A DNA stretch of 63,872 nt, the filler included, from Globobulimina sp. (Eukaryota), in the NCBI GenBank assembly GCA_003354225.1. It is 52 parts of 52 records of this genome, joined end to end, with 100 filler letters (N's around TTAATTAATTAA, not from the genome) between each part and the next. Parts side by side here need not be neighbours in the genome. Positions count along the whole stretch, not along the records: positions 6,156 to 7,286 come from PIVH01022743.1; 51 more parts are not named here. The stretch is one strand, 5' to 3'. Below, one piece after another: positions 4,825-8,618 of the stretch. The position numbers were made by a program, and so were the translations under genes. Under the pieces are notes generated by a model. The model ran no database searches and was not told the DNA's origin. It saw only the letters and a program-made list of their open reading frames with translations. The stretch's first letter is position 1. Every line of letters starts with the position of its first letter.

Positions 4825-4924
4825 NNNNNNNNNNNNNNNNNNNNNNNNNNNNNNNNNNNNNNNNNNNNTTAATTAATTAANNNNNNNNNNNNNNNNNNNN
4901 NNNNNNNNNNNNNNNNNNNNNNNN

Positions 4925-5738
4925 TTTCCATTCTGTCTAATTCAGCTCTTTCATATTCGCGCAAATATCGCAAATATCCTAAACAGCCAATTGTTACAAT
5001 TACTAATGAAACACCAATGCAAATTGCTGCGATTTTTTCTTTTTTCCGAGTGTCTGCTTCGGTATGAATGTGTGTCTTCGTTTGTGGCGCATCCGCAACC
5101 TCAGAATACAGTGCTATATTTTTAATGCTTCCGATGAATTTGTATCTTAATGAACCACAACAAACATCTTGTCCCAGATATAACACTCCCATATTGTTCA
5201 CGTTACCAAAGCAATTAAAGGTCACTGGTCCAGGAATATCATTCACGTACAATTGAATCCATGCATTGGATATATTGGCACTTGCTTTGTGCCACGTATT
5301 TTTAGATAACAATAGTGGATGCTCTACAAAATCGTAGCTTGGTCCGCTAGCTTGCTTGGAATGCTTACAAGTGCTGTCATTGCTTGCTGGCTTTGTGGAT
5401 ACTTCCATTCTTAATCTATGCACCATTCCTAATGTAATTTTAAATCCTGAGAAAGTTGTTCTATTAATAACGTCAGATAGACCATCATCATTGACAGTTT
5501 TCACCATCAATCCAGCCATAGCCAAATCCAGAGCAGAGTCATCAATTTTGAATTCGAATTGAATGCTACATTGTGTATCATTGCAGTAATTGTTGAGAGC
5601 TGTTGTCGAAGAGGTTAATTGTATTGGTTTGCTGGACTTTGTGAAGCTGTATGGCCCTGAAAACTCATTTGTAAAAATTGTAAAACCAATCACAAAATTT
5701 AACAGGGCCGTAACTGTAATAAACACAGAAAACAACAT
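4925..5738 (-). CDS. Type I membrane protein with a LamG/ConA-like beta-sandwich domain
   Basis: Signal peptide; NTWHKASANI..IQLYVND..LYLGQD..FIGSIKNIALYS LamG-like motifs; TM segment IAAICIGVSLVIVTIGCLGYL. Confidence 0.7.
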
Positions 5739-6235
5739 TTTGTTGATAGAAATAGTAAATATTTGAGTAACTCATAAACTCAGTATACATACACTCATAA
5801 ATGCATCAACAATTTTAACCTATCATTCATAGTGCCAGTGGATGGTGTTGTCAGATGTGTGTGTCTTGATGTTTCGAACTGTGTTTTGGAATACTAGCTC
5901 TATAAAAAGATTTTGAAACGACAAACATATACAAAGAAGTGTTACAGGAAAACAGAATCAAAAACAAAGAAAACAGCATTAATTATTTTCATATACTGTA
6001 CATTATTGCCCAGTAGTAACTTGCGATAATGTTTGATTACAATACATCGCTTCATNNNNNNNNNNNNNNNNNNNNNNNNNNNNNNNNNNNNNNNNNNNNT
6101 TAATTAATTAANNNNNNNNNNNNNNNNNNNNNNNNNNNNNNNNNNNNNNNNNNNNCCAACCAACGATTAGTTTTGTTATACTTATTTAGTTATTTTTCAT
6201 TGGTTTTTTGTATCTAATCAACATACAACATATAG

Positions 6236-7266
6236 GAAATTGGATGTACATTATATTTTGGTGCATTATCAGCTAACAAGCAGATGAAACGAATTATGTA
6301 CACACAAAGAAAAGAAAACAACAGAAAAATCGGAGGGACCGCCTTAAAATATTTGGATATGATCGAATGGTTAATTCAATGCTTAATGAAAGACAACATC
6401 GATTTACATTCATTGTTGACAAAGTTAGGCACATTCCATCAGAGAATGGGTATTAAAATCAATCATTTTGGTTTTTTACTGGAATCAATGCATGAAACTT
6501 TTTCATATTATTTCCCCAACAAATATACAATTAAAGTTATGTGCCGTTCGTTTAATATCCCATTTATCTGTACATGTCCTTATAATATGTCCTATAAATA
6601 CACAACAGATTAAATATGCCATGGATGAAATAGTGAGTCTCTCTGCACAGCTGATGACCGGCCAAGATTTGAAGTGTTCGCCACATTTAAACGCGATCAC
6701 AAAATCTTTTGCAAAGGAAAATACAGTCGATTTTATTAAAAATGTCGATTTTTGCTTAAAATCGACCATTGGAAGAGAATATTTCTATACATATTTACAA
6801 CAAACTTTTTGCGATGAAATTGCTATATTTTTGCAGTTGTTGTCCAAATTTAAGAGGCAATTGCGTAATGTTCAAAGATTTATGGTTGCAAGGGATGTTT
6901 TAGTGACATCAATCCAGCCATCGGCTGAGCTGTCAATTAATATTTCATATGATTGTAGGCAGAGCGTTAAGTGTTTTTGTTGACGGATTTGGTGTTACAT
7001 ACCATTGTTTTTCGTAAATTTGTTTTTTAGATTCTCATTGCTATGAAAGAATTGGAGCTACAGTTCAAGTCCAAGGAGTCGCTCGATATTAATGCTGATT
7101 TTTTCGATGCAGTTTAGTGTACGTTTATGTATATATTTATGTGGTGATTTTGTTTTAATTTTTTTGTAAGGCTGAACAGGAAATATATGAATTAATATTG
7201 GCTAATCATTGGGCAATATTTGTTAAGAATATTAAGGAATTGCATGCAAAAAGCTGTAAATATTGA
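6236..7266 (+). CDS. Globin-RGS domain fusion protein, 5'-partial; exons 6236-6535, 6609-6965, 7031-7111, 7171-7266
   Basis: Globin motif LLTKLGTFHQRMGIKINHF (proximal His), then RGS motifs GREYFYTYLQQTFCDEIAIF..INISYDCR..FFDAAEQEIYELI..HWAIFV. Three phase-0 GT-AG introns join these in frame to TGA at 7264-7266. Confidence 0.85.
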
Positions 7267-8618
7267 GTACAAAGTTGGGTAGCGATNNNNNNNNNNNNNN
7301 NNNNNNNNNNNNNNNNNNNNNNNNNNNNNNTTAATTAATTAANNNNNNNNNNNNNNNNNNNNNNNNNNNNNNNNNNNNNNNNNNNNTAATATAAAGTTCA
7401 AAAACAAGGGGTTAATCACTGGTTTTTGGCAGAATTAGAAAGATAAAAAATCCATTCCATACGTCTCGACCTCAGCTATTTAAATTTACATGCTAAACAC
7501 AATTCCAAGGTTTCCAGTCGGCGCAGTAACGCAAGATGGCGCAAGACGACGCCAGTTTCATTAATACTCTACCAATTTCGATCATTTATGGGTCAAATCG
7601 AAACATATCAATACCCTGGGCACGATTTTGACATCGCTGTAAGACCACTCTAACGTTGGTAGTCGGCGCACTGACGCCAGATAGCGCAAGACGACGCCAT
7701 ATTTATTACTTAAAATTTGTTGTTATTTTTGGAAAAAAATGGTTCAAATTTTTATCAATTTACTGGACTAGGCATCTTAGCCTTACTTGGACTTATAGAG
7801 GTAGTTGGGACTATGACACTGTCCAAATAAGGCTGAATAGTTTTTCATTATGGTCACTTTATGGTAGGCTGAATAGTTTTTCATTATGGTAGGTTAGTTT
7901 TCTTAGCTAATGAACACCGATTTCGAGGACCTTTCGCATTTATAGAAAAATAACTTTATGACTGTGCCTGCCCGATCCATCATAAAATGGCCAAACCCTG
8001 GCATATGTAACCTCTAAGCTTTCCCAATGGAATTTCCCCCAGCAACAAGAGAAAGTGCGGCTGTTCGAACACTTGGTGATGGACTAATGAATGCCATAGT
8101 TACATTTCTAAATATATGCAGCTGCTTGTCTGTTATAGAGTTTTGTTGTCTTTGGTCCATTATCAATTTACATCTGCATCTTCTTTTTCACTATCAGCGA
8201 CTATGAAGCACATAGTTTTAACTGCAATTTTACCAATCTGTTATGTGTCGTTTTGTTGATTGTGCTGTCAGGCTGCTGGAGGACCATGATCAATAAGATA
8301 TTGTCAAAACGCATAAGTTTTTGTGGGGATGGTTAGCATTGCACTGTGTATTTTGCTCGGTAAAGTCATTTGTGGGTCAGATAAATCACAGTCATAGTTT
8401 GGTTCACCAGCTTACACAACCAATTCAACATCTTCACTTTGACAGTGGACAATGACAGTTCTGTAATTGTACCAATGATGCAAGCATTCTTTCCAGTTTA
8501 ACAAGTTAGAAAAATTCNNNNNNNNNNNNNNNNNNNNNNNNNNNNNNNNNNNNNNNNNNNNTTAATTAATTAANNNNNNNNNNNNNNNNNNNNNNNNNNN
8601 NNNNNNNNNNNNNNNNNG

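Follow-up and report, generated by a model that had tools for sequence, protein, structure and literature searches.

A spliced gene joining a globin to a regulator of G-protein signalling domain, and its relatives in Foraminifera

The stretch of DNA analysed here, which we call the window, comprises 63,872 bases of the Globobulimina sp. assembly GCA_003354225.1, and at positions 6156-7286 it contains a contig which holds the 3' four fifths of an intact, spliced gene of a foraminifer-like protist. The product of this gene carries a globin followed in the same chain by a regulator of G-protein signalling (RGS) domain. The globin-RGS gene is expressed, 'transcript' being here our reading of sequencing run contigs that consistently lack its introns, and it is not a one-off but belongs to a large multigene family in Foraminifera. 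The window is made of 52 contigs in order of length, each of 1129-1131 bp, with runs of N around a TTAATTAATTAA linker between one and the next, and the gene lies wholly on one of them, 1131 bp long. Since these parts are separate contigs and not neighbours in the genome, the adjoining ones give the gene no genomic context. A tblastn search of the whole window with two family proteins, P0015 and P0005, turned up neither another exon nor a paralogue on the remaining 51 contigs, the sole other match having an E value of 0.86.

Gene structure and expression

The features of the contig, all on the plus strand, are as follows.

6156-6169, +: tail of an upstream exon, its last 14 nucleotides, reading ..NQRL in frame; from loose contig ends in runs X5, X6 and X7 with one mismatch, frame and translation checked
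6170-6235, +: intron of 66 nucleotides, GT..AG, phase 0; boundaries from sequence, inferred from the loose contig ends, with no spanning contig
6236-6535, +: exon of 100 codons, globin helices B to G; Pfam Globin E 7.9e-4 on the exon alone, alignments to Hell's Gate globin I and to the family
6536-6608, +: intron of 73 nucleotides, GT..AG, phase 0, at the globin G/H boundary; skipped in four of four runs, orthologous transcript proteins continuous across it
6609-6965, +: exon of 119 codons, globin H helix, linker and first two thirds of the RGS domain; Pfam RGS E 2.8e-4, RGS2 alignment
6966-7030, +: intron of 65 nucleotides, GT..AG, phase 0; skipped in four of four runs
7031-7111, +: exon of 27 codons, middle of the RGS domain; gap-free junctions against orthologues, covered by joined contigs
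7112-7170, +: intron of 59 nucleotides, GT..AG, phase 0; skipped in run X5, equivalent join in X6 and X7
7171-7266, +: last coding exon, 31 codons (7171-7263) and stop (7264-7266), C-terminal RGS helices; translation, orthologue and family alignments
7267-7286, +: start of the 3' untranslated region, to the contig end; a run X5 contig reaches 7286

The exons from 6236 onwards translate, once spliced, into 277 amino acids. Within the exon at 6609-6965 the globin H helix extends to about 6668 and is followed by a linker of about 22 amino acids and by the RGS domain from about 6735. The introns are more AT-rich than most of the exons.

Contigs of four public sequencing runs from three studies, whose library type is not on record, were aligned to the contig at 6156-7286. 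Splicing across 6535/6609 had been set as a check of an earlier reading made from sequence only, and contigs that join 6535 to 6609, as well as 6965 to 7031, were observed in all four runs. The third junction, 7111 to 7171, was joined in run X5, and in runs X6 and X7 the join ran from 7112 to 7174 with two other letters between; these runs carry a variant, about 92% identical to the window, and the join is the same junction with a different codon. A single 813-nucleotide contig of run X6 bridged all three junctions. Thus the four exons read in one frame through three phase-0 introns, as that sequence-only reading had proposed, were borne out by the sequence itself, by the relatives and by the spliced contigs, and every motif quoted in it was found in the translated frames.

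Upstream of 6236 the run contigs extend for a further 105-255 nucleotides with letters absent from the window, the last 14 of which match 6156-6169 with one mismatch. This implies that the contig opens on the end of another exon and that a fourth intron, at 6170-6235, comes next; the family consensus at the position of this exon end is QLEIGC. The four runs gave no cover over 6156-6235, an absence to which no weight is given here. The globin A helix, a low-complexity N-terminal region and the start codon thus lie off the contig on its 5' side, and the warning that the N-terminus is missing was justified.

The variant of about 92% identity was observed over 6236-7276 in runs X6, X7 and X8, one of which shares its organism code with the best DNA-matching runs. 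At 6320/6321, in the loop that links the CD region to the E helix, it is longer by six nucleotides, and it is a close paralogue, an allele or the copy of a sister strain. When window and variant were compared, 23 of 36 changed codons were synonymous (37 of the 46 listed substitutions being usable), and this predominance of synonymous changes fits a gene under purifying selection.

Two domains in one chain and the extent of the family

The 277-residue product matched all 28 family proteins in BLASTP, the best at 54% identity over 274 amino acids (E 4.7e-112) and most over 274 residues at 49-51% identity, with foraminiferal transcript proteins among them. A three-way alignment with the transcript-derived protein P0001 and with P0002 showed zero gaps at the three exon junctions. 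Taken alone, the exon at 6236-6535 scored 20.4 bits against Pfam Globin (PF00042; cut-off 22, E 7.9e-4, profile positions 26-96 of 117) and the exon at 6609-6965 scored 21.7 bits against Pfam RGS (PF00615; cut-off 23.9, E 2.8e-4, profile positions 6-74 of 117), both falling under the cut-off because each exon holds part of its domain only. Among the 27 relatives at E<=0.001 a precomputed RGS label was present on 24, and public pipelines had already attached both the RGS and the Globin label automatically to four of these relatives. Our own scan of aligned members at E<=0.01 found Pfam RGS in 27 of 28 (31.7 bits in P0015, 34.1 bits in P0002) and Pfam Globin in 8 of 28, the best with E 2.9e-7.

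The profile of the aligned family members was also compared with the sequences of the PDB. Its positions of about 105-230 matched Hell's Gate globin I (3s1i, E 1.9e-10; 3ubc, E 2.6e-9) and also annelid and plant haemoglobins and neuroglobins, and its positions of about 235-335 matched RGS2 (E 8.5e-8), RGS16, RGS1 and RGS18 (to 5e-6), with Axin at E 0.04. The AlphaFold2 model of P0015 from Nonionella stella, the closest full-length relative (51% identical), has block means of predicted local distance difference test (pLDDT) above 90 over residues of about 120-420, with dips to 86 at 171-180 and to about 70 at the linker (271-290), and with the first 100 residues or so disordered. Its globin part (model residues 127-270) superposed on all 131 residues of 3s1i in VIA-align (Z 16.5, root-mean-square deviation (rmsd) 2.0) and reached a template-modelling (TM) score of 0.84 to the same structure in Foldseek; against neuroglobin the values were TM 0.64-0.79 (Foldseek) and Z 15.6-16.0 (VIA-align). 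Its RGS part gave target-normalised TM scores of 0.81-0.86 in Foldseek to RGS16, RGS1, RGS8 and RGS4 (rmsd 1.6-3.1), chains solved with G-alpha included.

Structure prediction, another of the checks set beforehand, thus returned both folds in the orthologue P0015, and together with the profile matches to Hell's Gate globin I and RGS2 it upheld the globin pattern and the RGS box which had been read from the motifs, with a linker of about 22 instead of about 25 residues. On this evidence the relatives have a complete A-to-H, 3-on-3 globin fold, which is followed after some 22 linker residues by an RGS box. The window product aligns with residues 153-426 of P0015, from which it follows that the window protein is without only the A helix and the region before it. 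A complex prediction of the P0015 globin part against its RGS part plus haem (score 0.00, mark 0.34) was neutral on contact between the domains, and a search of the ESM Atlas returned no usable match.

Two relatives depart locally from the family pattern. P0001, a transcript protein of Elphidium margaritaceum, carries an internal repeat of about 40 residues in its RGS domain, the stretch from FCDEIAIF occurring twice, which is either a transcript-assembly artefact or an exon duplication. P0002 (ENA, 231 amino acids) follows the family up to the residue at window position 6965 and then continues into unrelated sequence starting Val-Lys; this tail resembles the window read through the intron at 6966-7030, which suggests that the position of this intron is probably shared with another genome.

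A profile search that covered 1.84 billion cluster representatives retrieved 662 proteins at E<=0.001, of which 209 reached <=1e-10 and 104 reached <=1e-30. We assembled 171 sequences (170 fetched and the window product), and in 75 of them, the spliced product of the window included, a globin is followed by an RGS domain in one chain, with at least 70% of both domains covered; in 41 the covered part is the globin alone and in 17 the RGS domain alone, and the remaining 38 are partial. Short fragments are numerous among the 41 and the 17. Where a member has a source name, it is Elphidium margaritaceum, Ammonia sp., Nonionella stella or Bolivina argentea, each a foraminifer; the other members are environmental, and two to four paralogues are visible per named species.

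Of 28 family proteins, 23 start with Met-Gly and three of the five that do not are evidently N-terminal fragments, and between this start and the globin there is a low-complexity stretch of about 100 residues rich in Ser, Thr and Pro. Met-Gly with a small residue at position 6 is a signal for N-myristoylation, and Gi-type alpha subunits use the same signal. Globin X, as passages of PMC7475203 describe, is N-acylated and anchored to the membrane through such a Met-Gly start.

Other architectures were also noticed among the retrieved sequences. P0063, P0090, P0100, P0139, P0149 and P0153 are proteins of 910-2461 amino acids with the family globin part in 5-14 tandem stretches (six Pfam Globin domains in P0139, E 1e-138, and five in P0153), and from their sequences these giants appear to be polymeric chains of several globins, which are related to the one in the globin-RGS family. 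P0080 (908 amino acids) and P0110 (725 amino acids) have a Pfam RGS domain (about 310-490) upstream of the family globin part (from about 510-580), so that some members have the order RGS-globin(-RGS) and not globin-RGS.

Key residues and the proposed function of the fusion

Residues were counted over the 75 two-domain sequences. Globin positions were assigned by HMMER alignment to 3s1i, of which we take Tyr29 to be B10 and Gln50 to be E7, and RGS positions by the RGS2 alignment together with the correspondence between RGS2 and RGS4; as contacts to the G-alpha switch regions in the structure of RGS4 with Gi-alpha-1 we take Ser85, Glu87, Asn88, Asn128, Leu159, Asp163, Ser164 and Arg167. Cys-Asp-Glu-Ile at 6810-6821 occupies the positions of RGS4 Ser85-Asn88, and Asn-His-Trp at 7204-7212 those of RGS4 Asp163-Tyr165.

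F8: His in the window (6437-6439); family His 69, Tyr 6 of 75
B10: Tyr in the window (6254-6256); family Phe 35, Tyr 25 of 75
CD1: Met in the window (6296-6298); family Phe 24, Met 23, Leu 18 of 75
E7: Thr in the window; family variable, Thr 14, Leu 14, Gln 13, His 4 of 75
E11: Tyr in the window; family Phe 30, Tyr 22, Leu 14 of 75
RGS4 Ser85: Cys in the window; family Cys 69/75, like RGS2
RGS4 Glu87: Glu in the window; family Glu 69/75
RGS4 Asn88: Ile in the window; family Ile/Leu/Met 60, Asn 1 of 75
RGS4 Asn128: Asn in the window (6939-6941); family Asn 61/75
RGS4 Leu159: Leu in the window; family Leu 53/75
RGS4 Asp163: Asn in the window; family Asn 56/75
RGS4 Ser164: His in the window; family His 47/75
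RGS4 Arg167: Ile in the window; family variable

The proximal His expected of a globin is present in the window protein, and so is the equivalent of RGS4 Asn128, a residue which stabilises the catalytic Gln of G-alpha. Judged from the alignments, the proximal haem ligand and the Asn128 equivalent are retained and one hallmark of each domain is lost, namely the CD1 Phe and the Asn of the RGS 'EN' pair, both of which the sequence-only reading had already suspected of being replaced.

We tentatively propose, at somewhat under an even chance for the mechanism as a whole, that the protein is a membrane-tethered haem globin whose state tunes the action of its RGS domain on G-alpha. N-myristoylation, which is proposed because of the Met-Gly start of its relatives, the start of the window gene lying off the contig, would hold the protein at the membrane's inner face. 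With His F8 as its ligand, haem would sit in a globin pocket that is mostly apolar and has Tyr or Phe at B10 (Tyr in the window), and the state of the haem (oxygen, nitric oxide (NO) or carbon monoxide (CO) bound; ferric or ferrous) would be relayed to the RGS domain by way of the H helix and the short linker, altering its engagement of G-alpha-GTP, the speed of GTP hydrolysis and how long the G-protein signal lasts. Signalling by heterotrimeric G proteins, for example in the steering of pseudopodia or in metabolism, would then track the local regime of oxygen and nitrogen oxides. For the setting of such signalling, passages of PMC3971589 describe in rhizarians most components of the G-protein-coupled receptor system along with an RGS radiation of their own, and passages of PMC5784254 report more than 30 G-alpha subunits in Bigelowiella natans. 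Haem binding, GTPase-activating protein (GAP) activity and sensing are here inferred, and coupling between the domains is supposed. Thus a real, spliced gene with the globin before the RGS domain, absent from the literature searched, is what stands of the original claim, and its further part, that haem ligand binding gates the turnover of heterotrimeric G proteins, keeps the rank of a supposition.

Several observations weigh against this proposal. To our knowledge a Phe at CD1 is nearly universal in haem globins, and here it is Met in the window and Phe in only 24 of 75 sequences; E7 is highly variable in the family. The Asn88 position of the RGS domain is hydrophobic, Asp163 is replaced by Asn and Ser164 by His, and Arg167 is variable, from which it follows that the canonical set of G-alpha contacts is only partly kept. 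Pfam Globin fails at E<=0.01 in 20 of the 28 scanned members, and the results on whole-protein domains and folds come from orthologues at about 50% identity and not from the window's own chain. Also, the G-alpha context is drawn from rhizarians at large and from Bigelowiella natans.

It is conceivable, though rather unlikely, that the globin binds haem and the RGS domain is no GAP, serving instead as a docking module which places the globin at G-alpha or another complex, or as an effector-like binder through which the state of the G protein controls the globin. RGS-homology docking modules are known from Axin, the GRKs, sorting nexins and AKAP10. Such a role would agree with the presence of Asn at the RGS4 Asn88 position in just 1 of 75 sequences, with the variable Arg167 and the change of Ser164 to His, and the family has a conserved motif set of its own (Cys in 69 of 75, Trp in 72 of 74, Phe in 73 of 73) which suggests a specialised partner surface. 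However, the profile has its closest matches among the R4 group of true GAPs (E 8.5e-8 to 5e-6) and is distant from Axin (E 0.04), and the equivalents of Asn128 and Glu87 are conserved in 61 and 69 of 75 sequences.

A different doubt concerns the haem. The globin fold might have been reused without haem as a regulatory or dimerisation module, as in the non-haem globins of RsbR and in photoglobins, and the protein would then be a lineage-specific RGS protein with an N-terminal helical domain; we consider this improbable. Non-haem globin families are documented (PMC8717448), the CD1 Phe is lost in 51 of 75 sequences, E7 varies, and most members match Pfam Globin weakly or not at all (8 of 28 match). 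Against it, the proximal His is kept in 69 of 75 sequences, the remaining six having Tyr, which is also a possible iron ligand; the other positions of the pocket stay hydrophobic or aromatic, and the nearest solved relatives are all haem-binding globins.

We attach a similarly small probability to the view that a membrane globin acts as enzyme or buffer (NO dioxygenase, nitrite reductase or scavenger of reactive oxygen species, akin to the myristoylated globin X) beside a constitutive RGS domain, the fusion serving only to co-localise the two. The window protein has Tyr at B10, as is typical of globins that bind tightly or react with NO. The Met-Gly starts in 23 of 28 proteins, as in the membrane-anchored globin X (passages of PMC7475203), and the occurrence of relatives in Nonionella stella and Bolivina argentea, whose life in anoxic marine sediments has been a subject of study (PMC8153729), also speak for it. 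Yet the domain order and the short linker are kept across 75 diverged sequences and the paralogues have expanded, which argues for a functional unit over mere co-localisation without excluding an enzyme or buffer. The weakest alternative, an artefact in the form of a fortuitous open frame, an assembly chimera or a pseudogene, could appeal to a contig of only 1131 bp and to the truncation of the gene at its 5' end, but has hardly any probability and was ruled out by the relatives (BLASTP E 4.7e-112; the same two-domain order in 74 database sequences), by the spliced contigs in four runs of three studies and by the intact frame with its stop and mostly synonymous changes.

Relation to known systems and other features of the window

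Prokaryotic globin-coupled sensors have kinase, cyclase and chemotaxis outputs. Like these sensors (HemAT, globin-diguanylate cyclases, globin-kinases), the globin-RGS protein has an N-terminal globin followed by a C-terminal signalling output for which control by gas or redox state is proposed; unlike them, it has a myoglobin-like globin (Pfam Globin; nearest to Hell's Gate globin I and neuroglobin), an output of the eukaryotic RGS type and a eukaryotic host. The globins of bacterial and archaeal globin-coupled sensors belong, as passages of PMC7475203 have it, to the sensor/protoglobin lineage. Protoglobin was not among the five Pfam families matched at E<=0.01 in the 28 scanned members, and we rejected membership in the bacterial lineage, the nearest solved relatives being myoglobin-like or F-type globins. 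By analogy the globin-RGS protein may at most work like a globin-coupled sensor, standing outside that lineage.

Sensor domains fused to RGS are known from helmchrome and the RGS-LOV proteins of stramenopiles, haptophytes and Botrytis (BcLOV4), as described in passages of PMC8017926, and the globin-RGS protein is like them in joining an RGS domain to a candidate cofactor-binding sensor domain in a microbial eukaryote. The sensor of helmchrome and RGS-LOV differs in being a flavin LOV domain that responds to blue light, and BcLOV4 is reported to act through light-regulated membrane binding (passages of the same source); a search of the 28 scanned members for LOV or PAS at E<=0.01 gave no match. 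A link between a globin and heterotrimeric G-alpha, which is proposed here, has its counterpart in human neuroglobin, a structural neighbour of the P0015 globin, whose ferric form binds Gi-alpha-GDP in the role of an inhibitor of guanine nucleotide dissociation (GDI) under control of the haem redox state, according to passages of PMC4842972. Neuroglobin differs in being a single domain that acts in trans as a GDI, whereas in the globin-RGS protein the RGS domain is covalently attached.

With RGS proteins of the R4 type (RGS2, RGS16, RGS1, RGS4) the globin-RGS protein shares the nine-helix fold, sequence matches at E 8.5e-8 to 2e-3 and the equivalents of Asn128 and Glu87, and with RGS2 in particular the Cys at the position of RGS4 Ser85; it differs from them in the replaced equivalents of Asn88, Ser164 and Arg167 and in the attached globin with its long, low-complexity Met-Gly N-terminal region. 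Globin X resembles the family in its myoglobin-like globin fold and in the Met-Gly start (with N-myristoylation predicted from the first residues only, a part which the window gene is without), and differs in having no signalling output domain.

The sequence-only reading knew of no characterised globin-RGS protein, and our searches of the literature, exact globin-RGS phrases included, likewise found none described, although the search did not reach Anantharaman et al. 2011 on G-protein architectures, the Reticulomyxa genome paper or the supplementary RGS architecture figures of PMC3971589, the last of which could list the combination. In the main texts of PMC3971589, PMC8153729 and PMC13561418 the word 'globin' does not occur.

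The conserved and expressed globin-RGS family with its many paralogues is a concrete, clonable candidate for oxygen and NO sensing. It extends the range of sensor domains known to be fused to RGS, until now LOV in helmchromes, and offers an evolutionary parallel to the debated link between neuroglobin and G-alpha. We know of no dedicated sensor protein in eukaryotes for the direct control of heterotrimeric G-protein signalling by oxygen or NO. The boldest form of our proposal, which we regard as doubtful, is that with this family there would be, for the first time, a haem-based sensor of gas or redox state that acts directly on heterotrimeric G proteins, a membrane-tethered globin whose oxygen, NO or ferric-ferrous state determines how active its own RGS domain is as a GAP, possibly with a neuroglobin-like GDI action in addition (a GAP-plus-GDI pair like that of RGS14); its expansion in Foraminifera might then be the signalling basis for tracking gradients of oxygen and nitrogen oxides in sediments and for surviving anoxia. 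Foraminifera stand out among eukaryotes in that they live, move and respire in oxygen-depleted sediments, as passages of PMC8153729 and PMC13561418 describe, and the main texts of these two papers do not address how they sense low-oxygen conditions.

Two other contigs of the window carry further features. At 4869-5771 on the minus strand, assigned to the contig at 4925-6055, an open frame of about 280 codons reaches the end of the contig; its N-terminal part contains Cys, and a hydrophobic stretch lies close to its C-terminus. The contig at 7387-8517 has, as seen by eye, a G+C-rich direct repeat of about 38 nucleotides at 7518-7555 and 7662-7699, about 144 nucleotides apart, and a direct repeat of 24 nucleotides at 7830-7853 and 7866-7889, 36 nucleotides apart.

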